DNA of 64,000 bases from Opitutales bacterium (GTDB lineage Bacteria; Verrucomicrobiota; Verrucomicrobiia; Opitutales; PNEW01): positions 585,721 through 649,720 of the forward strand of contig CBDANS010000006.1 of the NCBI GenBank assembly GCA_965197745.1, in the 5' to 3' direction. Below, in pieces: positions 4,676-63,208 of this stretch. The position numbers and the translations under genes are program-made. How positions within the stretch are numbered: the stretch's first letter is position 1; the number at the start of each line of letters is the position of its first letter. The notes under the pieces were generated by a model. That model saw only the letters and a list, made by a program, of their open reading frames with translations, was not told the DNA's origin and did no database searches.

Positions 4676-4704
4676 TACAATTATCGGAGTTTTTCAGTCC
4701 CCTG

Positions 4705-5553
4705 CTAAGGTTTTTCACCACGTCTTAACCTCGCCTCGATATCATCTAAGCACGGCATCAGATCAGCAATGCTGTCGACAACATAGTGGGCCCCACGCTG
4801 GTACATGGTGGGGTAAATGCGATCCCGGTGTTTTTGTTTTACCTCGTCGGGGAAGGCGTTCCAATCTTCGAGCGGGACACCCACCTCATTGCCGGAAACA
4901 GCCAACCCAACGGCCCAGCAACCTGCATTGAGACCTTCCTCGATTCCGGTCAAGGTATCGTCGATTTTTACTACCGATTGCACCGGCGAAACGTCGAGTT
5001 CAATGATGTTACGCAATACCATGTGCGGGTAGGGACGTCCACGCTTCACATCGCCGGCTCCGTAGGTGGCGTCGGGGGCATAACCCTGTTTTTCCGCATC
5101 CGCCTGGTTGATGGCGAGCATGCCGGGTAGATATCCGGAAGTAGAACCAATCTTATAGCCACGCTTACGGCATTCTGCGACGACCTCGAGTGTGCCTGGT
5201 ATGAGTTTTGAGTATTGCGACAGGCAAGCTTCCTGCATGGGCACGAAATCTTTAAACATACGGTTCACGTCATCCGCAGTCGGTTCGGCGCCGTGGGTTT
5301 CAACCCAATGCCGGCTAACACTGGGAATTTCGCAGATCAATCCGATATGAACTTTCTTGTGCGCCCCCATGGGAATGCGTGCTTCCTCAAGGGTGATGGG
5401 GACGCCGGCTTTCTCAAACACCTGGCGGAAAACTACAGCCGGCGCCATGCAACCGAAGTCCAGGGTTGTGCCAGCCCAATCGAGGATGATGCCGCGGATC
5501 GGGCCACGGTATGCACGGTCGTATGTAAATTCACGTTCGTTTGTAAATTGCAT
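4705..5553 (-). CDS. phnX: Phosphonoacetaldehyde hydrolase (phosphonatase)
   Basis: DWAGTT nucleophile motif, cap-domain PMGAHKKVHI (Schiff-base Lys), GRPYPHM, KIDDTLTGIEEGLNAG. Colinear with characterised PhnX over its full length. Confidence 0.8.
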   Translation of the reverse strand: MQFTNEREFTYDRAYRGPIRGIILDWAGTTLDFGCMAPAVVFRQVFEKAGVPITLEEARIPMGAHKKVHIGLICEIPSVSRHWVETHGAEPTADDVNRMFKDFVPMQEACLSQYSKLIPGTLEVVAECRKRGYKIGSTSGYLPGMLAINQADAEKQGYAPDATYGAGDVKRGRPYPHMVLRNIIELDVSPVQSVVKIDDTLTGIEEGLNAGCWAVGLAVSGNEVGVPLEDWNAFPDEVKQKHRDRIYPTMYQRGAHYVVDSIADLMPCLDDIEARLRRGEKP

Positions 5554-6103
5554 AAGAAATGAACTTTATCCTGGGGGCTTTAGGGTTTCAGGTAAAGGGT
5601 ATTACTATCAGTTGCTGTGGTACCGGATATTATTGCACGTGGTTCAGCGCGATGTCGGTTATCTCCTTATTGTCATTGCGAGGCCACTAATATTAAATTA
5701 GCGGACGTGATTAGCCTCGTCCCGTTCCCCGGACGCGACGGAGCGCGTCCCTCCATTTTCTTCACCCTTAATATAGACATTGTATCTCAAAAAAAGATCA
5801 CCCTTCTGGAGGGCCACGCGTCGTCGTGGCCGTGGCGATCTAGAGCTATGTCGGCTTCTCCTCGGTACGATTGCTGATTGAATAAGAGAATGGCGGATGT
5901 CGGTTATCTCCATATTGTCATTGCGAGTCCTGCAACCGCAGAACGAAGCAATCCAGGGGATCGCCGGTTACGTGTTGATATTCGCCTGGATTGCTTCGTC
6001 GCAACGCTCCTCGCAATGACATGTGAGAAAGCAGACTTTACCGCATACGCGCATTTCCGTGTATTCGCTTATCCCCTTTTGTCTTCTTCATATTGCAAGC
6101 TGT
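5554..6103. repeat. Repeat-filled spacer 3
   Basis: Direct repeat GCG(A/G)ATGTCGGTTATCTCC(T/A)TATTGTCATTGCGAG at ~5650-5683 and ~5893-5927. Hairpin+CCTCCA at 5731-5755. TGGAGG+hairpin at 5807-5831. Full long-hairpin element at 5916-6021. ORFs 5617..5877, 5698..5913 and 5878..6117 are repeat translations (the ...DCFVATLLAMT type). Confidence 0.85.
5916..6021. repeat. Long-hairpin element copy B (GTCATTGCGAG ... CTCGCAATGAC)
   Basis: Outer arms TGTCATTGCGAG / CTCGCAATGACA. Inner arms ACGAAGCAATCCAGG / CCTGGATTGCTTCGT. Central hairpin at 5953-5989 with loop GCCGGTTACGTGTTGAT. Confidence 0.85.
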
Positions 6104-6187
6104 CTATTGTTGATTAACTCGAGTATAGAAATTGATAAGGTTACTTTCCGGTTCAATTTTGAGAACTTCCCTGTAAAATGCCCTCAA
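6104..6187 (-). pseudogene. Relic of a VOC gene (5' truncation plus in-frame internal deletion), paralogous to 12251..12646
   Basis: The minus strand reads RLRAFYREVLKIEPES|NLINFYTRVNQQ*. The intact paralog has ...RLRAFYREVLKIEPDSG...(~90 aa)...NLINFYTRVDQ*. The DNA of both pieces is about 90% identical to the intact gene. Confidence 0.75.
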
Positions 6188-6191
6188 ACGT

Positions 6192-6920
6192 TCAGGAAAA
6201 TTGGTTCTCAATCAACGCGGGAAGATCCTTGACGCTGGGAATGACGTGTGTGTGCCAATAGCTTCCCCATGCTTCGACCGGTCGAGGACCGCTCAGGACA
6301 CCGACAATTCCGCGACATCCGGCGTTGTATCCTTCCAGCATATCGGCGGGGGTATCGCCGATCTTGAGCACCTCGTGCACGCTCTGTATGTCAAGCTGTG
6401 TCATGGCGTAGTAAATCATGAAGGGGGCAGGTCGGCCGCGGTCGCCGGGAATATGCTCAACATCGACAGAAATATCGACCAATCCGTCTCGGACCCATCC
6501 CAAACCGTCCATGATCGCTTCTGTAATATCCCGGTGAAAACCTGTGTCAGTGGCCACCTTAATGCCGTGCTCGTGACACCACCGGAAGGTGTCTGAAGCT
6601 CCCTCGACCTCGCGGACTTCCTTGCTATAGTGATCGATCATGATCTGCGAATATCGATCGAAGATCTTCGTTGCTTCCTCTTTCGTTTCCGGATCGATGT
6701 TCTTCTCGAAATCTTCGATTGTAATGTCCTGCCCCCTCGCGCGGGCGATGAGAAACTGATAGAGATGAATCTTGTTCGTCCCCATGTGCAGAAGTATTTC
6801 GTCAGGTGTGGTTTTCAAATCGAATTCCACGGCTGCCTTGTAGAGACAGTCCCGGACCCCGGTGTCGTCGTGAACCGTTGTTCCTGAGAGATCAAACATG
6901 ACCATACTTAATTTGCTCAT
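6192..6920 (-). CDS. Phosphonatase-like HAD hydrolase (PhnX-like clade)
   Basis: FDLSGTT, cap MGTNKIHL (Lys retained), GRPAPFM (Arg in place of the usual HAD Lys), KIGDTPADMLEGYNAG. This is the signature set described for the TIGR03351-type PhnX-like family. Confidence 0.7.
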   Translation of the reverse strand: MSKLSMVMFDLSGTTVHDDTGVRDCLYKAAVEFDLKTTPDEILLHMGTNKIHLYQFLIARARGQDITIEDFEKNIDPETKEEATKIFDRYSQIMIDHYSKEVREVEGASDTFRWCHEHGIKVATDTGFHRDITEAIMDGLGWVRDGLVDISVDVEHIPGDRGRPAPFMIYYAMTQLDIQSVHEVLKIGDTPADMLEGYNAGCRGIVGVLSGPRPVEAWGSYWHTHVIPSVKDLPALIENQFS

Positions 6921-6989
6921 TCCTATTGTATTCCTTTCTAATTGGTTAATGGTTCAGACTTTCGCCTTCTATTCCGTGCCACCCGCGTT

Positions 6990-7718
6990 TCAACCCTGGC
7001 AGCTCGCGTGTAATTGAACAATTTCGGAAAGGGTAAGCATGGCGTCCGGTGAATCACCTAATTCCGCCACCACATGGTCAGCCTCTGAAAAATCTTCCTC
7101 TGCGCTATAGGCGCTGGTGGTTACGAGACAAATCATGCCGGCCGCTTTCGCAGCCAACAGGCCGTTTCGAGTATCCTCGACAACGACACAGTCTTGCGCC
7201 GAAACACTGAGTCGCTCCCGGGCGAGATTGTAGATTTCCGGGTCAGGCTTTTTATTTTGGACGATATCGCCGGCCAAAATTTCATCAAATTTCGCTTTTC
7301 TATGCGGGCCGAGTAACTTTTCCAAAATAAGGTTTACCGACCTCTCGTTTGAGGTGGAACAAACAGCCAGCTTAACACCGACCTCAATGGCTTCATCGAT
7401 TATTCGCTCCACCCCGGAGCGTAGCGGCAGTTCTCCTGAATCAATGATGCGCATGAATATATCGGTTTTCAGCGCATGTAATTCCTTTATAAATTTATCG
7501 CGGTCCTCTTCCCTTACTCCGGGCGGCCACCCATCGCCATGGAAGTGATGCCGCATGCGCTCCTTGCCCCCGGATATGGCCAAAAGTCGACCATATAGTT
7601 CAACGCTCCATTGCACATTCAATTCATATTGGGAAAATGCGCGGTTGAAGGACACCCGGTGTCCGTCGCGTTCAGTGTCGACCAACACGCCATCGCAATC
7701 AAAAATTAATGCTTTCAC
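6990..7718 (-). CDS. HAD-IA hydrolase, CbbY-like
   Basis: FDCDGVLVDTERDGHRVSFNRAF, KKPDPEIY, VEDTRNGLLAAKAAG. 4-nt overlap with the aldolase gene. Confidence 0.75.
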   Translation of the reverse strand: MKALIFDCDGVLVDTERDGHRVSFNRAFSQYELNVQWSVELYGRLLAISGGKERMRHHFHGDGWPPGVREEDRDKFIKELHALKTDIFMRIIDSGELPLRSGVERIIDEAIEVGVKLAVCSTSNERSVNLILEKLLGPHRKAKFDEILAGDIVQNKKPDPEIYNLARERLSVSAQDCVVVEDTRNGLLAAKAAGMICLVTTSAYSAEEDFSEADHVVAELGDSPDAMLTLSEIVQLHASCQG

Positions 7719-8590
7719 TTTACTGATGCCAAATCCTGCCCTTTACCAGATCCACCAAACTGCCGGATCTTTTCTCTAACAAGCTGCTTCATACTTGTAT
7801 ACTGGGCTTCCAACACCCGCAGCGGTTCGTAGTCGTCGGGATTGTCACGGTGGTAATCGGCAAACCCATCGATGAAGGCGTGCTTCAGGTTAGTCGAGAT
7901 ATTCACTTTAGCGCAGCCCGACTTTATGCAGCGCTGAATAATCTCGTTGGACAGTCCAGTTCCACCGTGAAGAGCCAGGGGTGTAGCCGTTCGGTGATAA
8001 ATTTCATCGATTAAATCAAAAGCAACATTGGGTGTTCCCTTGTAAAACCCGTGAGCGGTGCCAATAGCCGGAGCGAAAACACCCAGATCGAGTTCCCGGC
8101 AAAAAATTTCCGCTTTGTCTGGATCCGCCAGATGAGCATCCCCATTCCCAACGACAATCTCTTCTTCAACCCCGACGATTTCTCCCAATTCCGCTTCAAC
8201 ACCAACCCCCGCCGGAGTGGCCATCTCCAGAACCTGACGGGAGACAGCAAGATTCTCATCAAAAGGCAGGTGCGAGCCATCGATCATGACGGAAGTCCAC
8301 CCCGTTTCAATGCAACGGCGGATCATATCCAATTCTTTGCCGTGATCCAGATGGAGGACGACAGGGAAAGGTGAATGCTCCGCCAGATCCCGCATCCAAC
8401 CCGCTAATGTTTCATGCCCGTAATATCGCACTGTTTTGGCCGATGCCTGAACGATCACCGGGGCATTCTCTTCTTCCGCCGCGCGCACGATGGCTTTCAT
8501 GGAAGCGTAATCAACCGGGTTGAATGCTCCCACGGCATAACCTGCTTTAGATGCGGCTTTCAATATCGGATTCAAACTTACTAATGACAT
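7715..8590 (-). CDS. Class II ketose-bisphosphate (fructose/tagatose-bisphosphate-type) aldolase
   Basis: AVGAFN, VVLHLDHG, GTAHG, ALHGGTG. I prefer the ATG at 8590 (MSLVSLNP...) over the ORF-track start at 8641, which overlaps the ADH stop. Confidence 0.8.
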   Translation of the reverse strand: MSLVSLNPILKAASKAGYAVGAFNPVDYASMKAIVRAAEEENAPVIVQASAKTVRYYGHETLAGWMRDLAEHSPFPVVLHLDHGKELDMIRRCIETGWTSVMIDGSHLPFDENLAVSRQVLEMATPAGVGVEAELGEIVGVEEEIVVGNGDAHLADPDKAEIFCRELDLGVFAPAIGTAHGFYKGTPNVAFDLIDEIYHRTATPLALHGGTGLSNEIIQRCIKSGCAKVNISTNLKHAFIDGFADYHRDNPDDYEPLRVLEAQYTSMKQLVREKIRQFGGSGKGQDLASVK

Positions 8591-8631
8591 TTCATGCTCT
8601 TCTTTTGATTTTTTTAAATTCGGATTTGTAA

Positions 8632-9741
8632 CTAAGAACAAGGTTCCACGATCGGTCGGATTCCTTCCCTACTTTCCAAAGCACTCATTGCCTCGGTAAC
8701 ACCCTCCGCCGATAAGGGATAACGTGGTCCTGCCATTTCGAAAAAAGGATATCTCTCCTGATTGCGATGGACGAGGTTAATAGCCATCCCGAGATGCCTC
8801 GGTTCGTAATTGTGTCGTCCCACCAGGGTCAAACATTTGGTGATGACATCGTAGGAATGGAGGGTGAAAGTATCATTCGGATAAACCGCGCCCTGGAGAA
8901 GGTAGCGCCCGCCTGTCCGCAGCATATTTATACCTGTTTCCACAACCCTGGCAAAGCCCGTGACCTCGATTAACAGATCGGCGCCTCTCCCATCGGTCAA
9001 TTCCCTAACCGCTTCTACCTGATCATCGCAATCCAGCTTTTCGGCATTCAGGGTGCGATCCACTCCAAAGCGTTTTGCCATCTCCAGGCGTGTATCAAGA
9101 ATATCAACCATGATCACCTGGCTCGCACCTGAAGCTTTGGCAAATGCCGCCGCATATAAACCAAGCATGCCGGCACCCTGAATTACCACGGTATCTCCGT
9201 GATCCACCCCAATCCTGTCCAATCCGCCGGCAACTGTAGCCGCTGCGCACATCAATGGGGAAGCAGTCTCATCCGGCATGCCTTCGGGAAGCTTGAATAT
9301 CCCCGTCCCCGGTTTCAGGTAAACATACTCACCAAATGTCCCGAGGAAATAAGGAGGTACATCACTGACGGAGTGACCGTATTTAAACAGATTCAAGCAT
9401 TTTTGCGGCAGCGCATAATCCTGGCAAAAGATACAATCGCCGCACGACGCCATGATCGTCCAGGAAATCCGATCACCCACGGATAGTTGCTCACCCGCGG
9501 CATCCCTGGCATCCCTGTCACCCATTTTCTCCACGATGCCTACACCTTCATGACCCATCACTGAAGGCACAGGAAAAGGTCGACGCCCTTTCCAACTGTG
9601 CATGTCGGAACCACACACCGTAGCGATTTTCGTTTTTACAAGGATCGCTCCTGGTTCCAAATCATCCGGCAGCGGATATTCCCGATCCTCCAGGGGCTCA
9701 CCCACACCTAGAAAGAATACTGCTTTCCCCCTCTTACTCAT
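8632..9741 (-). CDS. Zinc-dependent alcohol dehydrogenase (MDR family; resembles the phosphonate-catabolism-associated ADH clade)
   Basis: GHEGVGIV, structural-zinc CGDCIFC, Rossmann GAGMLGL. The clade assignment (TIGR03366-like) is inferred from context and memory. Confidence 0.75.
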   Translation of the reverse strand: MSKRGKAVFFLGVGEPLEDREYPLPDDLEPGAILVKTKIATVCGSDMHSWKGRRPFPVPSVMGHEGVGIVEKMGDRDARDAAGEQLSVGDRISWTIMASCGDCIFCQDYALPQKCLNLFKYGHSVSDVPPYFLGTFGEYVYLKPGTGIFKLPEGMPDETASPLMCAAATVAGGLDRIGVDHGDTVVIQGAGMLGLYAAAFAKASGASQVIMVDILDTRLEMAKRFGVDRTLNAEKLDCDDQVEAVRELTDGRGADLLIEVTGFARVVETGINMLRTGGRYLLQGAVYPNDTFTLHSYDVITKCLTLVGRHNYEPRHLGMAINLVHRNQERYPFFEMAGPRYPLSAEGVTEAMSALESREGIRPIVEPCS

Positions 9742-10135
9742 ATCCCATCAATACAATATATTTCTTACCAACTCACTGCACCACTCATTATGCAAGGTAA
9801 CTCCGCCGCCATATTGCCACAAGATTTATTATTATGAATTGGGTCGTAGAACTATAACGATTGAGATATCATAAGGTTGCGATTTGATACACGATGCATG
9901 TTGAAGGGCCACGCTATGCCTGTCATGCCGTAGTCCCGTGGTGGCGGGACGAACGAAGGCAGATCGTGGCCGTTTGTTATTCGGTAATTATCGGAAAATA
10001 CGCGGACGCGATCAGCCGTCGCCCGGTGGACTATGGCCGACAGGCATCGCGCGTCCCTCCATATTTTACATCCCCTCGTGCACGCTTCTACGCATTCACC
10101 CATAATCGCATTCACCCTTTCAACTTTCTTTCTAT

Positions 10136-10273
10136 TGTCATTGCGAGGATCCTGCAACTGCAGGAGACGCGGCAATCCAGGCGAATGCCGGATACGTGTT
10201 GATATTCGCCTGGAATGTAAGATGTCAGGCTACTGCCCTCGGTAGCCACGTCGCAACGCTCCTCGCAATGACA
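10136..10273. repeat. Long-hairpin element copy C
   Basis: TGTCATTGCGAGG...CCTCGCAATGACA. Internal palindrome CCTGCAACTGCAGG. Central hairpin at 10177-10213 (CCAGGCGAAT-GCCGGATACGTGTTGAT-ATTCGCCTGG). GGCTAC..GTAGCC sub-hairpin. Confidence 0.85.
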
Positions 10274-10574
10274 GTTGAGAAAAAAGTCTATTTCTGCTTT
10301 ACCGCTTACACACATTACCGCATATCCACATTCACCCTTACTCCCTTTTACCCATATCTACATTACCTGGAGGGCCATGCTCCGTCATGGCCGTTAGGTG
10401 TTCGGTAAATAACGAAAAATACACGGACGCGATCAGCCGTCGCCTCGAAGATGCGCGAGGACTATGGCCGACAGGCACTGCGCGTCCCTCCATATTTTAC
10501 ATCCCCCCGTGCACGCTTCTACGCGTTCACCCATTCACGCATAATCGCATTCACCCTTTCAACTTTCTTTCTAT

Positions 10575-10716
10575 TGTCATTGCGAGGATCCTGCAACTGC
10601 AGGAGACGCGGCTACCGAGCGCAGCGACATCTTCCATTCCAGGCGAATGCCGGTTACGTGTTGATATTCGCCTGGATTGCTTCGTCTCCCGCAGTTGCGG
10701 GATCCTCGCAATGACA
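10575..10716. repeat. Long-hairpin element copy D
   Basis: Same ends as copy C. CCTGCAACTGCAGG pairs with CCCGCAGTTGCGGG. Central hairpin at 10639-10675 with loop GCCGGTTACGTGTTGAT. Confidence 0.85.
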
Positions 10717-10844
10717 AAGGTAATCAAAACCCAATCCGTAAAAAGGGTTACCCGACGGTTACTTATCACTATCTGGCTGTCTTGGATCGCGCATCCTAAT
10801 ATTATGAAGGGAGCAGACCTTTTTTTAATATTCCCCCTTTGAGC

Positions 10845-10894
10845 TTGACAGACTGCCTGATTAATATAAATTAATGAGTTTATACTCACTGAGT
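10845..10894 (+). promoter_or_regulatory. Putative sigma70-like promoter plus TGAGT/ACTCA operator upstream of the TetR gene
   Basis: TTGACA at 10845-10850. TAAATT / TATAAA candidates at 10865-10872. Overlapping palindromes TGAGT-N4-ACTCA-N1-TGAGT at 10875-10894, 14 nt before the ATG. Confidence 0.35.
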
Positions 10895-10907
10895 TATTAC
10901 TTATCAA

Positions 10908-11501
10908 ATGATTGCGGTTGGAAAAAGAGTCAAACAGAAAGCAGAGACGCGAGAACGAATTCTTAAAGCTGCTTACCATGAATTTTCGAAAAAAGGAATC
11001 CAGGCGACGAAGACTGCCGAGATTGCCCGATCAGCTAAACTTTCGCATGGGGCAATCTTTGTTCATTTCGCCACTCGAGAGGACATTCTAGCCAGTGTAA
11101 TTGATCAATTTGGTATCAGGTTAGGCAGCCAATTGGAGAAACGCCTGAAAAATAAAAGCAGCGTTCGCGAGATACTTAAAGCTCACCTTAATACCATTAA
11201 GGAATTCGAATCGTTTTATACGGAATTAGTCATCCTGGGACCACAATTGCCTAAATACGTACGAGGAACTTTATTTACGGTGCAGAACGGGTTGTTGCAT
11301 TATTTTATGGCAGCCCTGGAAAATGAGATTCCGAGCAAACGTTATCGCCATCTATCCAAAAGTCTAATATTTAATACCTGGATGGGGTTGGTTCATTATT
11401 ATGTAGCGAACAGAGATCTTTTTGCGCCAGGAAGATCGATTATCTCAAAACAGGGTAATCGGATTATAAGACATTTTCTAAACCTGATTGATGTAAAATA
11501 A
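10908..11501 (+). CDS. TetR/AcrR family transcriptional regulator
   Basis: N-terminal HTH RERILKAAYHEFSKKGIQATKTAEIARSAKLSHGAIFVHFATREDIL. 197 aa. Confidence 0.85.
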   Translation: MIAVGKRVKQKAETRERILKAAYHEFSKKGIQATKTAEIARSAKLSHGAIFVHFATREDILASVIDQFGIRLGSQLEKRLKNKSSVREILKAHLNTIKEFESFYTELVILGPQLPKYVRGTLFTVQNGLLHYFMAALENEIPSKRYRHLSKSLIFNTWMGLVHYYVANRDLFAPGRSIISKQGNRIIRHFLNLIDVK

Positions 11502-11519
11502 CAATGGAAGGAGAAAACA

Positions 11520-11771
11520 ATGACGGAAAAGTGTAAAGCATGTGGTTCCTGTGGTATGCCTCTATTAAATAAAGAAGATTTTGGAGGGGCCGATATGAGT
11601 AACGATTACTGTGTACATTGCACCGATGGGGACGGTAAGTTAACGGCTACATTCGAGGGAATAGTATCTTATTATGCTGACGAGTTTCAAAAAGAACAAG
11701 GTCTGGACAAAACTGAGGCACGAAAGATGGCCGCAGAAACCGTTTCTAAATTACCCGCCTGGAGTAATTGA
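11520..11771 (+). CDS. Small zinc-ribbon protein
   Basis: CKACGSCG and CVHC cysteine pairs. AAGGAG RBS 8 nt upstream. 18 nt after the TetR stop. Confidence 0.65.
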   Translation: MTEKCKACGSCGMPLLNKEDFGGADMSNDYCVHCTDGDGKLTATFEGIVSYYADEFQKEQGLDKTEARKMAAETVSKLPAWSN

Positions 11772-12250
11772 TTATTTAATGGGTAGATTTGTAGAGGTTA
11801 AACTAACAAACTGAATTTATTATTTTAATTGGAAAGGGTCAGCCTCTGCATGGAAGATCTTAGTGAGAAAGAAGTCTTTTATGTTAGCTCGAGACCTGCA
11901 ACAGCGGCGCTAAGCTACCGAGTGCAGTAGCCCACCTGTCGTCCATAGCCACGTCGCAACGCTCCTCGCAATGACAAGTGAGAAAAAAGTCTATTTCTGC
12001 TTTACCGCTTACACACATTACCGCATATCCACATTCACCCTTACTCCCTTTTACCCATATCCACTTTACCTGGAGGACCATGCTCCGTCATGGCCGTTAG
12101 GTGTTCGGTAAAGAACGGAAAATACACGGACGCGACGACGCGCGTCCCTCCATTATTTACATTCCCGCATTTCCACTTGTTCGCTTACACCCGTAACCGT
12201 GTTCCAGCTTTACCGCTTACACGCATTTTCGCGTATTCGCTTATCCCCTA
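11772..12250. repeat. Repeat-filled spacer 5
   Basis: Partial long-hairpin element at ~11890-11976. A 188-nt segment at 11948-12135 is ~96% identical to 10245-10432. Hairpin units at 12071-12095 and 12128-12152. ORF 11884..12081 (..CHCEERCDVA..) is spurious. Confidence 0.9.
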
Positions 12251-12646
12251 TTATTGATCAACTCGAGTATAGAAATTAATAAGGTTACCGTCTGGATCAC
12301 GAAACCAGATTGAACGATTTCCCCATTCCTGGGTCGTTGGTGGTTTAACCCACTCGATATTTAATTTCATTAAGCGTTCATATTCTTTATCAACGTCCTC
12401 TACTAGAAATTGCAGGGAAACACACCTGTTGGTGGCTGGTATTGAAGAGCCTTTAACCCTTTCGTCCTGGGCTTTAAAACTATATAAAGCCAGTATCCCT
12501 CCCTCGGTATGAAACTCTACATAGATTGAACCTTCCCCACTATCCGGTTCAATTTTGAGGACTTCCCTGTAAAATGCCCTTAATCGATCAACATCATGGG
12601 TAGTTATACAACTGTGCGTGAATTTCATAAAATCAGTTCGTGTCAC
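12251..12646 (-). CDS. VOC family protein (glyoxalase/bleomycin-resistance-like)
   Basis: 131 aa. ..THDVDRLRAFYREVLKIEP.. and ..FRDPDGNLINFY.. modules. Confidence 0.75.
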   Translation of the reverse strand: MTRTDFMKFTHSCITTHDVDRLRAFYREVLKIEPDSGEGSIYVEFHTEGGILALYSFKAQDERVKGSSIPATNRCVSLQFLVEDVDKEYERLMKLNIEWVKPPTTQEWGNRSIWFRDPDGNLINFYTRVDQ

Positions 12647-41629: not shown

Positions 41630-41701
41630 ATTTAACTACACCGTTAACTCAGAGTTGAAAGGCAACAGCCTTTGAAACATTAAAAATATGAGGCCTGACC
41701 C

Positions 41702-43274
41702 GAATGGCGTTAAGATAAGGGATAGAATGAGTGCAATAGATGCTTGTACAGGGACCGTTGGAGAGCTACCCTAACGAGCATGCAAAAACAAAACTTAACT
41801 CGTTATTTTCCAGGATTTAATCAGGTCCTGTTCGGTCGTGCTCCCCGAACAGCCCTTGCACAGATGGAGGGTAAGCTGGTAGAAATACGGCGGTCAAGTC
41901 TTTCCGAGCTATCGGATATCTTCGGGCAGTGGGTGCCGCAAAAGTATTTACACCGGAAGCCTCGAGGGGCTAACAGCCGGCGGAGATTGTTCAGCCAAAA
42001 CGTGACCTTCTGGGCATTTTTGTTCCAAGTGCTCTCACCACGGACTGCCTGCCGGGAAGTGGTGCGCAAGCTCCAGAGCTATTGCAGCATGAAGGGGCTG
42101 AAGTTGGCTAAAGGAACGGCCTCGGCCTACTGTCAGGCGAGGCAACGGCTGTTGGTGCAAGACCTGCACGGGATCCATGAAGCGATCAGTGAAGAGGTGG
42201 CCGGGAGAGTGACCGACGATCAACGGTGGAAAGGTCACGAGGTAAAAGTGGTCGACGGTACGGGTATCGCCACCGCCGATACGCCGTGCTTGCAGAGGTG
42301 TTACCCACAGCCTTCGCAGCAACGAAGCGGCTGCGGCTTTCCGGTGATGAAGCTGGTGGGCTGTTTTTCTTTAGCCAGTGGGGCGCTTTTACACTGGATG
42401 GAGTCCTCACTAAGGCATCATGACAGTGTGCTGTTGCGGGGCATGATCGGATTTTTTCAAAAGGGTGATGTGGTCCTTGCCGACCGGGGATTTTGCTCTT
42501 ACCTCAATATTGCCCTGCTTAAAGGCCGCGGTGCTGAAGCGGTCATGCGTTTGCATCAGCAACGAAGAAGCGACTTTCGTCAGGGCAGGTCCTTGGGTAG
42601 GTATGACCGGCTGATCATGTGGAAGAAGCCGCAAAATGTCTTCGGCTTCAGTCGCGAGCAGTGGCGGCAAATCCCTGATGAGATCCCCGTACGGCTGGTG
42701 AAGATTTTCATTTTCATCAAAGGTTTCCGCGCCCATAGCGTAGACCTCGTGACTACCTTGAGCGATCCTCACCAATACTCCCACCACGATCTCGGAGAAT
42801 TATACTATCGGCGCTGGGCAGTGGAGCTTTACTTTCGCCACATCAAAACCACCATGGGGATGGAGATCCTGCGCTCTCGCTCGGTCGCTCTCGTGCGCAA
42901 AGAGATTGCGATGTTTGCCATCGCCTACAATCTCTCATCCGCGCTCTTTTGCAGCAAGCTGCCAGTGCCTTCCACCGCGACCTCTCCCGGCTAAGCTTCA
43001 AGGGGGCTGTTGACACCCTCCGCCAATATCAAAGTGCGCTCGCGGCCACCCGGTTTAATCCCAGAGCCCAACGATCTGTCATTGACGAGATGATACACCT
43101 CATTGCCCTCGAATCGGTCCCCCTACGTCCCTTCCGATACGAACCAAGAGTCCTCAAACGTAGACCTATACCTTTCCAACGATTGACTCATCCACGAGCC
43201 ATGATGACCGTCTCTGCTTCACGAAAAAACAAAGGCTTTTATCATCCTAAACCACCCTTATCTTAACGCCATTC
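41702..43274 (+). mobile_element. IS4-family insertion sequence with 11-bp target-site duplication
   Basis: 20-bp terminal IRs: GAATGGCGTTAAGATAAGGG (41702-41721) and its complement (43255-43274). Flanking direct repeat AGGCCTGACCC at 41691-41701 and 43275-43285. Confidence 0.85.
41744..43266 (+). pseudogene. IS4 DDE transposase, frameshifted near the C-terminus
   Basis: VVDGTGIATADT, VLADRGFCSY, YYRRWAVELYFRHIKTTMGME. The frame switches at ~42931-42936 (AATCTCTCATCC) from ..IAYNL to IRALLQQAASAFHRDLSRLSFKGAVDTLRQY... (ORF 42949..43266). Confidence 0.75.
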
Positions 43275-43300
43275 AGGCCTGACCCTTTATGCTCTGTCCT

Positions 43301-44176
43301 TCAAACAGCGGTGAGCACCGTATTTAATTGTTTTGTGAGATAGGGAGACACCTTCCCCACTTGACTCACCGATTTCAGCAAAGGGAACGTACTTCCTCCC
43401 CAGTCTCCGTTACGGTCAAACACTTGTCTCCCCATGACAACCCCTGATTCATCGATAAAGCCTTTAAGCCGCGCAAGCCCTTCCTTAATTACTTTCTCAG
43501 GCAGGGTTTTTCCCCTTCGCTTGGACCACTCAACAAGATAATATAAACCCCGCAATATATCGTACTCGAAAAAGCGCGGAAAGAACGGTTTCAGCCATTC
43601 CTTGTTGATGACCCTTCCCTCATTCCTGGAGCATACCAGACGATGTTCAATCAGGTAGCGCGCGCCTTCCTCCAGGAATTTCGCTTCGGCATCGGTGTAG
43701 GCGCGATTTGTATTGAAGAGAATGGCTTCCATTGGAGGCAGTGTAGATACAATCGAGCTCTTTCGCGAATTCCCGTAGGCTGAAGGGGTACAATTCAACC
43801 CTCCATCCGGAAGCTGGTGTTTTAGAAACCATTCCCGCATCCAGGGAAGCTCACCATCGACATCACAGCCACAGGCCGAAAGCATCATGTAAAAAACCCC
43901 CAATTCACAGTGACAACAGTCCATCTTAGTCTTATCGGCTTTGCTCTTCGGTGCATCATCATCTGTAATCACGAACTTTGGCCAGGCCCCCTCTTTAAGC
44001 ATCGCTAAAGCTTTCTTAGCAACCGGTTCAGGGATTTGCTCGGTTTCCCCCATTTCGTAAAGAGTTACCATGTGCCACCACGGCCCTACCCATTTCCTTC
44101 TACTCCGGTTGTCCGGCAATGAAAACGTATCCGTTGCCGTGAGTAATTCCATTGAATGCTCGATCGTGTTTGTCAT
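43301..44176 (-). CDS. Hypothetical protein (possible alpha/alpha-toroid, prenyltransferase-like repeats)
   Basis: 291-aa ORF. Only weak QLPDGGLN-type motifs are present. Confidence 0.4.
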   Translation of the reverse strand: MTNTIEHSMELLTATDTFSLPDNRSRRKWVGPWWHMVTLYEMGETEQIPEPVAKKALAMLKEGAWPKFVITDDDAPKSKADKTKMDCCHCELGVFYMMLSACGCDVDGELPWMREWFLKHQLPDGGLNCTPSAYGNSRKSSIVSTLPPMEAILFNTNRAYTDAEAKFLEEGARYLIEHRLVCSRNEGRVINKEWLKPFFPRFFEYDILRGLYYLVEWSKRRGKTLPEKVIKEGLARLKGFIDESGVVMGRQVFDRNGDWGGSTFPLLKSVSQVGKVSPYLTKQLNTVLTAV

Positions 44177-54180: not shown

Positions 54181-57100
54181 TCACTCGATTGTTATCTCTT
54201 CCACCGTAACGGTTAATTCCTCACCATCGGCGTTTACAAATGTGGCGACGATGCTTTGCGTTGGTTGTGCCGTTAGGTCAGACTTAAAATTGTTCTGCGA
54301 AATCAGGGTATCGAATCCAGGTGCTGTCGATCCGCTCGGTGCGATCACGATCGAGGCACCGTTAGACTGAGAAAGATCACCCCCCGTGATGCGCATCCCG
54401 GGATTACCCGCGGGTATGGTAAAGGACCCATCACTAAATAAAAGGTAGGGGACTGCATCGCCACTGGCATCGATGTCACCTACGGTTAACCGCACGGCTA
54501 TCGGGATTCCACTGGCATCAAATCCAATCTTACCTGAACTGCCACTAAATACCGCGTTCGAGAGTTGTACGCCACCCAAGCCTGTAGAGTTGATCACCTC
54601 TACGAGCGTGACATCAGCTTCAGCATCATAGACCTGTCCCTCGGGGAACAATGCCTGGTTCACGGCATTGATCCTTCCCACCGTGAAGATACTGAAGAAG
54701 GTACTCGCGTCGGCTTCTTCGATCAACACGCTCGGTTTGCCTGTAACATACATTACCTCCTGGTTGTAGCGAGGCGGCGGGGCGGGGGGCAGGTAGGTGT
54801 CCGGATCTAATGTAATCGTAAATGTACCGCTGCCCGAAAATTCTACCTGTACAATGTCCTCGTCTTCATCCATGAACGAGACCCGTGTGATCTGCCCTGG
54901 CTTGGCCTGAAGTCGGATGGACTCCCCGGTTAACAAGACCTGGTCGAACACGTTCCCGTTAGGATGCTGGATGTCCTCACCGGCAATATCTCCCGAGCCG
55001 TCAAGCACGAGGGGTAGAGGCGGAGCCGATACGGTAATCACCGCGGTATCACTATTGGTGCTCCCTCCAGCATTGGTTACCTCTACCCAGAAGTTGGTGC
55101 TATGGGTAAGAGCACTGATGGTGAAAGTGTTGCTCGTAGCACCGGCGATGGGACTGGCGGTATTACCGCTGTTGCCGGTATACCATTGGTAGGTGAGATC
55201 ATCGCCAATTGCTGTCACTGATAGGACAACCGCGGTACCGGACTCTACTTCCTGGCTCGCAGGTTGGGATGTGATCGAGGGAGTACTGGGACCTTCCCCG
55301 TTAATAGAATCGGTAGTGAGACTGAAGACATAAGCTGAGCCGGAATCCTCACCGTTGTCATCGTCTAACCACGCTCCGACTACCACGGTGTCACCGCTTA
55401 TATCTACCGACCCAAAAGAGTTAAAACGCGCGCCATCGCTGGCTAATAGCTTAGTTACTTGGCCCCAGTTGTCAGCACCGCCTGTGTTGCGCTCAAAAAT
55501 ATAAGCTGAACCGGAATCAGTTCCGTTGTCATTGTCTCCGGTAGCTCCAACCACCACCGAGTCGCCGCTGATTTCGACCCACCCCCCAAAAATGTCACCC
55601 TCTCCGCCATCGATGGCAAGCAGTTTGGCAACCTGACCCCAGTTGTCAGCACCGCCCGCGTTTCGTTCAAAAATGTAGGCAGAGCCGGAATCAGTTCCAT
55701 TGTCATCGTCCAAATCTGCGCCCACGATCAAAGTATCTCCGCTGATCACAACATGATTGCCAAACACGTCTTCTATTGCGCTGTCATTTGCAGTTAGTTT
55801 TGTAATCTGTCCCCAATTGTTATCACCCCCTAAATCGCGTTCAAATACGTAAGCAGAGCCGGAATCGAGGCCGTTGTCATCGTCATAGAGAGCACCTACT
55901 ACTGCCGTGTTGCCGCTGATCGCTACTTCCCAGCCAAATAAGTCACCTTCTGCGCCATCGCTGGCCAATAGCTTAGCGACTTGGCCCCAATTATCGATCC
56001 CCCCTGGTCGCGTTCAAAAATGTAAGCCGAGCCAGAATCACTGCCTTTGTCATCGTTACTGTCAGCCCCGACTACTAACGTATTCCCGCTGATCGCAGTG
56101 GATTTACCAAACAAGTCACCCGGCGCACCGTCACTGGCAGTTAATTTGGTTAATTCAAGGTCAACTATATTTTCTAATATCTCGATCACCAGGTTGTAGG
56201 AAGTGCGAGTCGCTCCATTAAAACCTAAGATACGGAGGAAGTAGATCTCACTCGTCCCCACAACCAGAGATATGTGCTCGTTGTCAGTATCAGTCCCCGA
56301 AAAAGTTACCTCGTTTAAGTCCCCATCGTAAAGAAGTAGATCTAAGTCACCTTTTTCCTGGCTGAACAAGATGCTTACATTTAGCCTACCCTTTGCGCTT
56401 GTTGTGAGGCGGTAGTAATCTTCCTCACCATGAACATGAATCGACAGATCATTCTCTGTATATTCATTAATTATCCCCAGTTCTGTCGCTGTTTCAAAGC
56501 TGTTATTGGGTTCGAATTGATCACCTGAACCTACTAAGTTTACACCAATATCTCCCAATATTGCCAAATCCAGATCTGATATTTTTTCACGTCTATCAGA
56601 GAAGGCAAATTGAGCCATTAAATCAGAAAGTAGAACTTCACCAGGACGAGGTGATGAATTCCCAACGTGAGAAATAGATCCAAAAGTTAAAGGAACCGGT
56701 CCACCGTAGACCATCATTGCCATAGGCCCCGTAAAAAAGAAATTTGTCCCATCAAAGTTTATTAACTCGTCATATGTCGTTATTATGTTGTGAGCAGGGA
56801 GTTCGCCAGTGGTTTCATTTATAAAAACTGCAATTCCAAATATATGCCCAAACTCATGCAAGATAGTCGAATAAGCATCAAATGAGCCAAACGGAATGCT
56901 ATCCGTGCGTTCAGTAGGATTTGGATCAAACCATAATTCTCCATTGGTTAATGAATTTATACTAATTGTAATAAACCCGTCTGGTCTAGTTTCATTAAGG
57001 TCAATCCCAGTTCTTATTTCAAAGATCGAATTTGGTTCAACATTGATACGCGTGCCATCATTGCGAACAAAAGCGCTATTGGCAGCACCACCTGTTGCTA

Positions 57101-61394: not shown

Positions 61395-61782
61395 AATTCA
61401 TTCATTAATAGGCATACGGTTAATACGGTGCAATATTAATTCATAGAAGGAGCAAAAGAGGTCATGCAGTTTGACTGAGGCAACCCTTTGGCTTGAGGTC
61501 ATCAGTAGCTCCTCGCCTGGAATGAAAGATGTCCATCCGTCGTCCCGCAAGAGCGGGACTATGGACGACAGGCGGACTCTGCCCTCAGTATCTTCGTCAC
61601 CCGCAATTGCGGGTTTCTCGCCATGAACAAGAGAAGGAGGTAACACGGACACGGGCTAACGGCGCTTCCTGATTACCTGATATATCTTGCTCACGATCAG
61701 CCCGTGCTTAAATAAATAAAAAATAGGGTCGTATAATTCTGGATTAATTACTATATTATACCCTTAACCCAAGGATATTATT
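61395..61782. repeat. Repeat-containing spacer 6 (degenerate long-hairpin element plus putative promoter of the PilT-like gene)
   Basis: ~61500-61632 carries ..CTCCTCGCCTGGAATG.., the nested hairpin GTCCAT-ccgtc-GTCCCGC-aaga-GCGGGAC-t-ATGGAC, and CACCCGCAATTGCGGGTTTCTCGCCATGAACA (compare ..CCCGCAGTTGCGGGATCCTCGCAATGACA). IR CACGGGCT/AGCCCGTG at 61647-61706. TATAAT at 61732-61737. ORF 61398..61652 is spurious. Confidence 0.7.
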
Positions 61783-62814: not shown

Positions 62815-63208
62815 ATGCGGTAACGCGGGGATGCGTTAATGTGTCAATGTGTGTATGTGTAAACGCGGAAATGCTGAGGTGAAATAATGGTGGGATGCGA
62901 CGGAGCGCGTTTCATCTATTCATTACCGAACACCTAGCGGCTATGATCTGCCTTTGTCCCGTACCGCAGTCGCGGAAGGACTACGGCATGACAGGCATCG
63001 CATGGCCCTCCATTATTTTTTATTTATAATATTTCTTTGGTATATAAAATAAAAGATTAAGAAGCGTGCTTGGGACGGCCCGCTCCACCACTTATTTATA
63101 TTTATACTATGGTGAGGTGGAACGCGGTGTCCCTACCGCGTTATCGGTTATTCATTAATATATGTAGAGATGCGTGAATGCGTGAATGTTGTAACGCCAT
63201 TCGTGCGG
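62815..63208. repeat. Repeat-filled spacer 7
   Basis: GTRAAYG-type tract at 62815-62887. Degenerate TGGTGGGATGCGACGGAGCGCG unit. The long-form hairpin unit at 62925-63012 is the reverse complement of 9905-9990. Family-X modules at 63064-63089 and 63115-63142. GCGTGAATGCGTGAATG at ~63168-63190. Confidence 0.85.

Follow-up and report, generated by a model that had tools for sequence, protein, structure and literature searches.

Short palindromic repeats with a CGTC or TGTC tag have been described in two settings. The CGTC-tagged repetitive extragenic palindromes (REPs), which include Neisseria dRS3 and Rickettsia RPE-4 and RPE-6, come with TGTC and CCTC tag variants, stems that start with AT, and a short unpaired tail of consensus CCA; their dimers, mostly heterodimers, often have structured spacers, and copies are found within genes and in mosaics with other repeats (Di Nocera et al. 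2013, BMC Genomics 14:522; PMC3733652). NTS, which contains dRS3 (CGTCATTCCCGCGMAVGCGGGAATCYRG), and other Ssn-related motifs (SRM) lie on either side of genes whose products are small GIY-YIG proteins of a single domain (Ssn, cd10448), the gene architecture being NTS-ssnA-NTS (Chenal et al. 2025, Nat Commun 16:2388; PMC11893778). Here we analyze nested-hairpin repeats from a 64-kb stretch of the genome of an Opitutales bacterium (contig CBDANS010000006.1, positions 585,721 to 649,720), the whole of which we call the window. We conclude that these elements probably belong to the CGTC/TGTC-tagged REP class (SRM), with recognition by a nuclease of single-stranded DNA (ssDNA) as the operative principle.

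What is known of SsnA makes specific positions of such a repeat matter. The protein binds and cuts NTS solely as forward-strand ssDNA, not as double-stranded DNA (dsDNA) or RNA. Binding depends critically on the C that follows the palindrome, and cleavage on the three nucleotides that precede it; the cut site lies a few nucleotides upstream, and the loop can be removed or extended (PMC11893778). In Neisseria the effect is to restrict the integration of repeat-bearing transforming DNA. Cutting of ssDNA alone by a cognate nuclease has been demonstrated for the Neisseria and Wolbachia pairs only, and 19% of the SRM-rich genomes in the published survey were without ssn (PMC11893778).

Results

The recurring object is a tagged half-element

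The 12-mer box TGTCATTGCGAG, allowing at most one mismatch, occurred nine times in the window compared with 0.22 expected, a number reached in none of 100 shuffles. The sites are 673–684 (−), 5671 (+), 5916 (+), 6010 (−), 10136 (+), 10262 (−), 10575 (+), 10705 (−), and 11965 (−), and the tag TGTC is present at all nine. Three full copies, accompanied by partial ones, lie where an initial annotation of this DNA had placed them: copy A at 5916–6021 (106 nt), copy C at 10136–10273 (138 nt), and copy D at 10575–10716 (142 nt). The outer arms that it described and the internal palindromes CCTGCAACTGCAGG and CCCGCAGTTGCGGG were also found in the sequence. When copies A, C, and D were folded as ssDNA with DNA parameters and compared with shuffles, z was −6.9, −7.9, and −11.4, respectively. 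The opposite strands of full copies folded equally strongly (z = −6.4 and −10.7), as expected because these are DNA palindromes.

Scans of IMG/VR for the arms at varied spacings gave 50 contigs, which together with the window held 227 outer boxes, 204 parsable units, and 138 distinct modules. What recurs in this collection is not the foldback of 106 to 142 nt but a half-element, hereafter the unit, of about 37 to 46 nt. Its layout is TGTC/ATTGC/GAG-module-G(A/T/C)(A/G)/GCAAT/C(T/C)C, the tail in the window being CCAGG; the 5-bp basal stem is followed by a GAG/GAA internal loop and then by a module of 6 to 27 nt, and the gap between the two conserved boxes ranges from 4 to more than 30 nt. The modules are nearly always small hairpins of unrelated sequence, such as GCGNAGC, GGCAC-TTG-GTGCC, CACCT-GAAA-GGTG, CCAGTG-CGCA-CACTGG, and TCGCC-ATA-GGCGA; 38% of them fold better than 95% of module shuffles (DNA parameters), and an identical module stem was found with the loop GAA or TTC. 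Many of the modules are GCGNAGC, the d(GCGAAGC)-type DNA mini-hairpin. Across phyla the conserved parts are the tag, the basal stem ATTGC/GCAAT, the GAG…GAA, and the C after the stem.

Full copies are two units inverted around a spacer with their tags outward. Nearly all such dimers are heterodimers, 42 of the 44 distinct ones having unrelated modules in their two halves; the inner-box variants GAA, GTG, and GCG are unmatched between halves, and in the wider family the spacers (8 to 62 nt) are unrelated apart from their complementary ends. Solo units, tag-to-tag dimers, and tandem truncated units of 23 to 24 nt are also common. The truncated units consist of the outer box and a pyrimidine-rich linker (for example TGTCATTGCGAGGTGCACCCCTCC, three times) and form arrays at loci L124, L125, L162, and L163 (e.g., L163 6162–6233) and at L263 297–365 and 938–1006; the 5′ flank of the tag is pyrimidine-rich across the whole family.

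Five units of the window are intact, three have the inner box GC/AAT split, one consists of the outer box alone, and a copy at about 61.5 kb is decayed. All five intact units read ATTGC…GCAAT and then C. The left half of copy A (5916–5957, + strand), TGTC/ATTGC/GAG-TCCTGCAACCGCAGAAC-GAA/GCAAT/CCAGG, is predicted to fold into a basal stem and an apical mini-hairpin, and the right half (5985–6021, − strand) has the module GAGCGTTGCGAC. Also intact are the left half of copy C (10136–10181, + strand), with the apical hairpin CCTGCA-AC-TGCAGG, and the right half of copy D (10671–10716, − strand), with CCCGCA-AC-TGCGGG. The fifth intact unit (648–684, − strand) forms, with 580–647, a fourth dimer-like copy that has another spacer and a degenerate partner. 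Inserts split the inner box in the right half of copy C (10209–10273, − strand; 28 nt, TACCGAGGGCAGTAGCCTGACATCTTAC) and in the left half of copy D (10575–10643, + strand; 23 nt, TACCGAGCGCAGCGACATCTTCC), and the box is disrupted as well in a unit at 11880–11976 (− strand); the inserts in these three units, of 23 to 28 nt, come from a second repeat family. The solo outer box at 5671–5682 (+ strand), a truncated unit, has its 5′ flank in common with copy A, and the decayed copy (61495–61635) corresponds to an element's right half, …CCTGGAATGAAAGATGTC…ACCCGCAATTGCGGGT-TTCTCGCCATGAACA, and holds one more nested hairpin insert. Units are located between divergent, convergent, and co-directional genes alike, copies C and D being between divergently transcribed genes.

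The initial annotation had read each full copy as one long hairpin with compensatory stem changes and a conserved central loop. Compensatory changes do exist within the local mini-hairpins but not for a 140-nt foldback: the two sides of copy D differ by T>C and A>G, and whereas the local hairpins remain perfect, the long foldback would gain a T·G pair and an A·C mismatch. Copy D is not the near-perfect foldback that had been described, since its arms, 46 nt long, are 85% complementary and only one side carries a 23-nt insert. The prevalence of heterodimers with unrelated modules likewise speaks against a single co-evolving hairpin.

The 17-nt loop, GCCGG(A/T)TACGTGTTGAT, is indeed present in exactly copies A, C, and D, and the spacer that holds it, CCAGGCGAAT-GCCGGWTACGTGTTGAT-ATTCGCCTGG, was found in the window only in these copies. 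The spacer of copy C (10177–10213) is CCAGGCGAAT-GCCGGATACGTGTTGAT-ATTCGCCTGG, and that of copy D (10639–10675) is the same with A>T in the loop. In copy A (5953–5989; CCAGG-GGATC-GCCGGTTACGTGTTGAT-ATTCG-CCTGG) the 5′ arm of the central stem is GGATC instead of CGAAT with the other side unchanged, leaving the inner 5-bp stem broken and uncompensated. The dimer-like copy at 580–684 has a complete unit with a different spacer, so even the copies of the window do not all have the loop. The loop with its 3′ stem (26 specified bases) had no match in JGI metagenome contigs, which shows only that the spacer is not widespread; the 16-base loop pattern occurred in genome contigs at 119 loci (about 280 expected by chance), as single matches in unrelated taxa, none of them with the outer box. 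Because the loop is limited to copies A, C, and D, spacers elsewhere are unrelated, and the stem change in copy A is uncompensated, we concluded that the copies share it through local duplication or ancestry, as part of a spacer specific to the lineage, and that it is not a recognized feature. The broader proposal, a folded nucleic acid with interchangeable hairpin modules, was borne out; recognition by a protein is most plausible, and the element behaves as a non-autonomous repeat, not as a simple spacer.

The copies have a common local history. A block of about 430 bp, comprising the left flank and the start of copy C, was tandemly duplicated to give copy D; 11936–12135 is a 95% identical duplicate of 10233–10432, that is, the right end of copy C and 160 nt of its flank; and the left flank of copy A recurs at 5651–5685. 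Since the copies share duplicated flanks, they are not independent. A strain-variant contig (99.5% identical) is without 147 nt, window positions 10100–10246, which are the left part of copy C (junction at its position 9340). Precise excision of the element in this variant was ruled out, the junction being a 3-nt CAC microhomology inside the mosaic. Short-read (Logan) contigs stop at 10099 and within copy A; ending as they do inside repeats, they indicate that the repeats break assemblies.

Units accompany genes for small GIY-YIG proteins

Scanned with phmmer, all loci together yielded a single small GIY-YIG open reading frame (ORF), on a Flavobacterium beibuense contig (L154). It encodes 98 aa, matches PF01541 at 1.3e-14, and has TGTCATTGCGAG dimers on both sides. 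Over 96% of its length the protein shares 45% identity (E = 8e-19) with a 94-aa protein of N. gonorrhoeae, an SsnA homologue, which is embedded in NTS/dRS3 repeats (CGTCATTCCCGCG…GCGGGAATC). The protein family comprises 15,413 clusters at 50% identity (E ≤ 1e-3), and a PDB sequence search with the nuclease gave only a weak UPF0213 match.

We then considered 80 metagenome loci chosen only by similarity to the F. beibuense protein (57–80% identity). The motif [CT]GTCATTGC occurred within 1.2 kb in 63 of the 80 loci, with 233 matches compared with 2.6 expected, and units lay on both sides of the gene within 400 nt in 32 of them. Unit density within 100 nt of the gene was 5.0/kb upstream and 6.7/kb downstream and was 0.1–0.3/kb at 600–1200 nt; this decay with distance controls for genome-wide abundance. 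An association with nuclease genes, raised in the initial annotation, was observed in loci selected for the protein and not for the repeat.

The tags near these ssn-like genes were CGTC in 145 cases and TGTC in 32. The basal stem covaried (ATTGC, ATTCC, ATTTC, ATCGC, ATTCT, ATCCT, and ATCCC) around a fixed tag and 3′ C, and tagged hairpins numbered 255 compared with 24 in shuffles. A Planktothrix homologue is accompanied by TGTC-ATTCT-GAG…GAA-GAAT-CTC and TGTC-ATCCT…AGGAT-CTC, together with tandem truncated units, and a Spirosoma homologue is flanked by TGTC-ATCCC-GAG-GAAC-GAG-GGAT-C. Many Ssn-like proteins in the databases have N-terminal extensions of 30 to 55 aa that resemble translated upstream units (e.g., P0017 and P0023).

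The likeness to SRM and NTS, a class whose tag can be CGTC, TGTC, or AGTC, consists of an oriented, unpaired (C/T)GTC tag 5′ of a stem starting with AT, a C immediately 3′ of that stem, an apical loop that is irrelevant, hundreds of copies both dispersed and clustered, and the presence of TGTCATTGCGAG-type units on both sides of small GIY-YIG genes (the 32 loci above). The two differ in that the unit has a 5-bp ATTGC/GCAAT stem, then a GAG…GAA loop and an apical hairpin that varies, whereas NTS has an 8-bp stem and a 4-nt loop; in addition, about 100 kb of the Opitutales genome contained no ssn gene, and the unit type is abundant in phages. With the CGTC-REPs the unit shares its CGTC/TGTC tag, AT at stem positions 1 and 2, and the CCA tail (TGTC-AT…AT-CCAGG in the window), together with inverted dimers that are mostly heterodimeric, in-frame intragenic copies (here in a phage portal gene), mosaic clusters, and no adjacent transposase. 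Spacers of the CGTC-REPs are 20–100 nt long and often structured; those seen here are 8–62 nt. The sequence ATTGCGAG was not found in the text or supplement material searched of Di Nocera 2013 (PMC3733652).

Distribution across bacteria and phages

A unit with a CGTC tag and CCAGG tail is present in a plasmid of Methylosinus trichosporium OB3b (CGTCATTGCGAGGAGCGAAGCGACGAAGCAATCCAGG…CTGGATTGCTTCGCGTTGCTCGCAATGACG). Units also occur in Halomonas, in Aulosira, where one end has TGTC and the other CGTC, in Flavobacterium, and in many phage contigs. One phage group (portal phrog_64, major head phrog_212) accounts for 20 of the 50 unit-bearing IMG/VR contigs. The proteins that recur in the 50 loci are phage structural proteins only, with the single GIY-YIG gene in addition. 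Phage units lie between structural genes, directly ahead of a ribosome-binding site (RBS) and ATG, and one phage has an in-frame tag-to-tag dimer inside its portal gene (L163 ~4700–4790 compared with L128 489–1877). A search of the literature for the arm sequence matched only quantitative PCR primers, and contigs with the closest aldolase homologues (other organisms, 51–61% GC) contained no units.

Strong folding, and the position of phage solo units directly before RBS and ATG, might suggest that the element works as RNA, either as a structured noncoding RNA or as a regulator at the RNA level (terminator, mRNA stabilizer, or processing site) bound by a protein through the long hairpin and its loop; REP-type repeats are, moreover, often co-transcribed at 3′ ends (PMC3733652). 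A structured RNA was one of the candidates in the initial annotation, and we consider it very improbable. Neither the window nor 13 related loci had an Rfam 15 match at the gathering score, and none was found at E ≤ 1 in 5600–12400. The two strands fold equally well, a terminator scan found no T-run after any unit, and copies C and D lie between divergent genes. The halves do not co-vary, the broken stem in copy A is uncompensated, the loop is absent outside the lineage, and copies are found in frame in the phage portal gene. SsnA, the partner protein of the class, binds ssDNA and does not bind RNA (PMC11893778).

A second possibility is that of a MITE, an internally deleted DDE transposon whose 12-nt terminal inverted repeats, TGTCATTGCGAG, are recognized as dsDNA. 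The TG…CA termini, inverted arms, small size, and several copies would fit such an element. However, no copy has target-site duplications, solo half-units and tag-to-tag dimers are common, the boxes are 4 to more than 30 nt apart, no locus has a transposase between the arms, and the ends of the insertion sequence (IS) in the window (GGGTCAGGCCTGAATGGCG…) are unrelated. Decay from a MITE of a known IS, which the initial annotation had named as the contrary outcome, is thus highly improbable.

Another architectural parallel is with REPINs, inverted REP doublets mobilized on ssDNA by RAYT, an HUH Y1 transposase: REP, REPIN, and BIME elements are small imperfect palindromes that are recognized as ssDNA hairpins with a 5′ tetranucleotide, inverted doublets that form larger hairpins, and mosaic intergenic arrays. 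The unit has this same architecture of a tagged imperfect palindrome, spaced inverted doublets, and BIME-like mosaics (PMC3116915, PMC3337134). REPs, however, carry a GTAG tag and have an HUH Y1 partner (RAYT, TnpA-REP), whereas here the tag is TGTC or CGTC and the flanked gene encodes a GIY-YIG nuclease. Clustering, the one method applied to this point, revealed no recurrent Y1 transposase in the 50 unit-bearing loci, and CGTC repeats are without RAYT association according to Di Nocera et al. (PMC3733652). REPs are also species-specific and vertically inherited, unlike the unit, which has the same sequence across phyla and phages. We therefore assign a low probability to mobilization by a RAYT.

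Other repeats and genes of the window

The insert that splits GC/AAT at the same position in three units is a 23–30-nt element, TACCGAG(C/G)G(C/T)AG…ATCTT(A/C)C, located at 10610–10635, 10217–10244, and ~11925–11950; free copies at 587–612 and 718–746 form an inverted pair around the unit at 648–684. Either it is a secondary repeat nested in the units, or it is a variant unit that has been propagated. ATATCG-rich tandem repeats of 14 nt (447–535 and 753–797) flank the same unit. Nesting of this kind is reportedly found in the small dispersed repeats of cyanobacteria treated by Elhai et al. in 2008, in which palindromic modules are said to sit in the loops of other repeats with hairpin potential kept. 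The sequences of those repeats differ from that of the unit, the nesting of hairpins being alike, and they are not known to be linked to a tagged unit or a nuclease.

Arrays with an 8-nt period adjoin the hairpin units, always in the same mosaic order (CTTTACCG CTTACACA CATTACCG CATATCCA CATTCACC…; on the other strand ATGCGTGA ATGTGGGA…), at 1851–1909, 2174–2207, 6036–6080, 10297–10357, 10516–10560, 12000–12067, 12152–12252, 62815–62872, and 63154–63195. Two further families of hairpin repeat, GGAGG-GCCACG…CGTGGC and GGAGG-GACGCG…CGCGTC, have either a 6-nt loop (ACGACG/CGTCGT) or a nested hairpin insert of 40 to 60 nt, some being followed by T-rich tails. They are found at 1801–1829, 1917–1943, 2136–2161, 2214–2239, 2270–2297, 5728–5752, and 5810–5845, and at 9905–9972, 10000–10061, 10372–10395, 10425–10493, 12074–12100, 12127–12152, and 62892–63010. 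The window also carries another inverted-repeat pair, AGGTGGAACGCGCTGTCCCTAGCGCG / CGTGCTAGGGACAGCCCGCTCCACCT, near its start and near its end (342–417 and 63059–63142).

Mechanically called ORFs, at 9852–10175, 9894–10202, 10387–10842, and 10551–10979, and gene calls in databases run through the repeats and yield pseudo-peptides (CHCEERCDVA, VIARR…, HCEARSNL…). Of the two pseudo-peptides attributed earlier to the repeats, CHCEERCDVA was confirmed in the window, and DCFVATLLAMT belongs with …LRFARNDK and VIASEAKQS among the ORFs of which the same repeats are the source. Pseudo-ORFs of this kind are common in metagenome annotations.

Between 13000 and 61000 lies a long accessory island of genes for modifying small molecules, mostly on one strand, with repeat-rich mosaics at both ends and no hairpin repeats inside. 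Its genes include many for GNAT acetyltransferases, APH, glyoxalases, HAD, methyltransferases, NUDIX, SKI, and Antibiotic_NAT. A 3.1-Mb ENA/NCBI metagenome contig 99.98% identical to the window and a 71.7-kb strain contig differ in content at ~39–41 kb and beyond ~53.5 kb, one having an integrase, IS1595, and a methylase/Mrr gene and the other FG-GAP/Sel1 genes. The only IS in the window (41671–43305) is of the IS4/IS5 type, with ~31-bp terminal inverted repeats (GGGTCAGGCCTGAATGGCGTTAAGATAAGGG) and a DDE_Tnp_1 ORF of 416 aa that is apparently frame-disrupted near its 3′ end. At 55325–56099, 174-nt coding tandem repeats, unrelated to the hairpin units, occur in the gene for a large FG-GAP-type protein.

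The cassette-like gene content (GNAT, APH, glyoxalase, NUDIX, methyltransferases), together with imperfect inverted repeats that have a variable center, brings to mind integron attC sites bounding gene cassettes. The repeats are present only at 0.3–12.3 kb and 61.4–63.2 kb, with none among the roughly 40 genes at 13–61 kb; being confined in this way to the window ends, they are not attC sites. As no GTTRRRY/RYYYAAC core sites and no integron integrase were found either, the integron explanation can hardly be entertained.

Discussion

The class to which we assign the window repeats is already known, from the CGTC REPs of 2013 and the SRM/Ssn work of 2025, and these repeats are a new member of it that varies in several features. 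The stem has 5 bp, the internal loop is a conserved GAG/GAA, the apical hairpin varies, the composite heterodimers have a spacer specific to the lineage, and there are nested inserts. The unit has one anatomy throughout a family that crosses phyla, and it is associated with ssn-like genes. Its conserved positions are those that matter for SsnA and NTS, namely the GTC tag, the stem, and the 3′ C, with the apical part free. By analogy with Neisseria SsnA/NTS, the Opitutales genome would encode a cognate nuclease that cuts the units, and the activity of that nuclease, or of SRM-ssn-SRM as a minimal IS, may spread the units or underlie their effect.

Several observations weigh against assignment to a nuclease-recognized class. 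The published SRM pattern, HGTCWYN(0-2)YYVSBRHN(0-5)WNVSBRGN(0-2)RNCYNB, matches NTS but not the ATTGCGAG-type unit and gave no hit in the window, although it is an operational search pattern, hand-built from 29 genomes, and not a definition. The CGTC-REPs as described have stems of 8–9 bp and loops of 4–5 nt, whereas here the stem is 5 bp and the "loop" 12–27 nt. Of the eight units reaching past the outer box, three have a split inner box and may not fold as required. The F. beibuense-type protein is placed in cd10448 provisionally, through its 45% identity to the gonococcal homologue. Neither the window nor the roughly 100 kb of the genome and strain variants examined yielded a GIY-YIG ORF, so that the partner in this organism is inferred and the units could be relics. 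Finally, each window copy has flank in common with another copy; segmental duplication is therefore sufficient to explain the copy pattern, and the mode of spread is not shown by it.

Taken together, the last points might suggest inert, decaying relics left from an earlier SRM expansion whose partner nuclease is gone, which persist and multiply only by segmental duplication of mosaic intergenic blocks. To the shared flanks and the three split units can be added the one badly decayed copy, the loss of 147 nt by microhomology deletion in the strain variant, the absence of a nearby ssn gene, and the SRM-rich genomes without ssn in the published survey (PMC11893778). Five units nevertheless keep the GTC tag, the stem, and the 3′ C, with zero mismatches in the 12-nt box, which would be unexpected for unconstrained relics. 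We regard this explanation as unlikely and continue to favor recognition of the units by an Ssn-type nuclease.

If so, the forward strand of a unit would fold wherever it becomes single-stranded, be it at replication forks, in incoming transforming or conjugative DNA, or in phage DNA, and the folded unit would be bound by an Ssn-family nuclease, a small protein with GIY-YIG as its single domain. Binding would depend on the stem sequence and the 3′ C, cleavage on the GTC tag, and the nick would fall a few bases 5′ of TGTC. The apical part would not be read by the nuclease and therefore would be free to vary and to accept nested inserts. Full copies are two inverted units whose apical modules usually differ, separated by a structured spacer that is specific to the lineage, and they lie in mosaic intergenic blocks that also spread by local segmental duplication.

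It is conceivable, but in our judgment rather doubtful, that unit-ssn-unit propagates itself as a minimal ssDNA mobile element of a hitherto undemonstrated kind, analogous to IS200/REP-RAYT but driven by a GIY-YIG protein. Were this true, the element would cross phyla and invade phages, including by in-frame insertion in essential genes; the apical position would be a tolerated "cargo" site that gathers nested hairpins; and the 106–142-nt composites would be non-autonomous derivatives still moved in trans.

Intergenic nested hairpins that had been puzzling are now assigned to the Ssn/SRM system. The ATTGCGAG type spans Alpha- and Gammaproteobacteria, Cyanobacteria, Bacteroidota, the source lineage, and a phage clade, and because the published pattern misses this widespread type, the prevalence of SRM is probably underestimated. 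For annotation, units should be masked and ORF calls across them avoided. If the nuclease link holds in this organism, the units would mark sites at which ssDNA is cut, which would bear on the recombination boundaries of the island and on conflict between phage and host.

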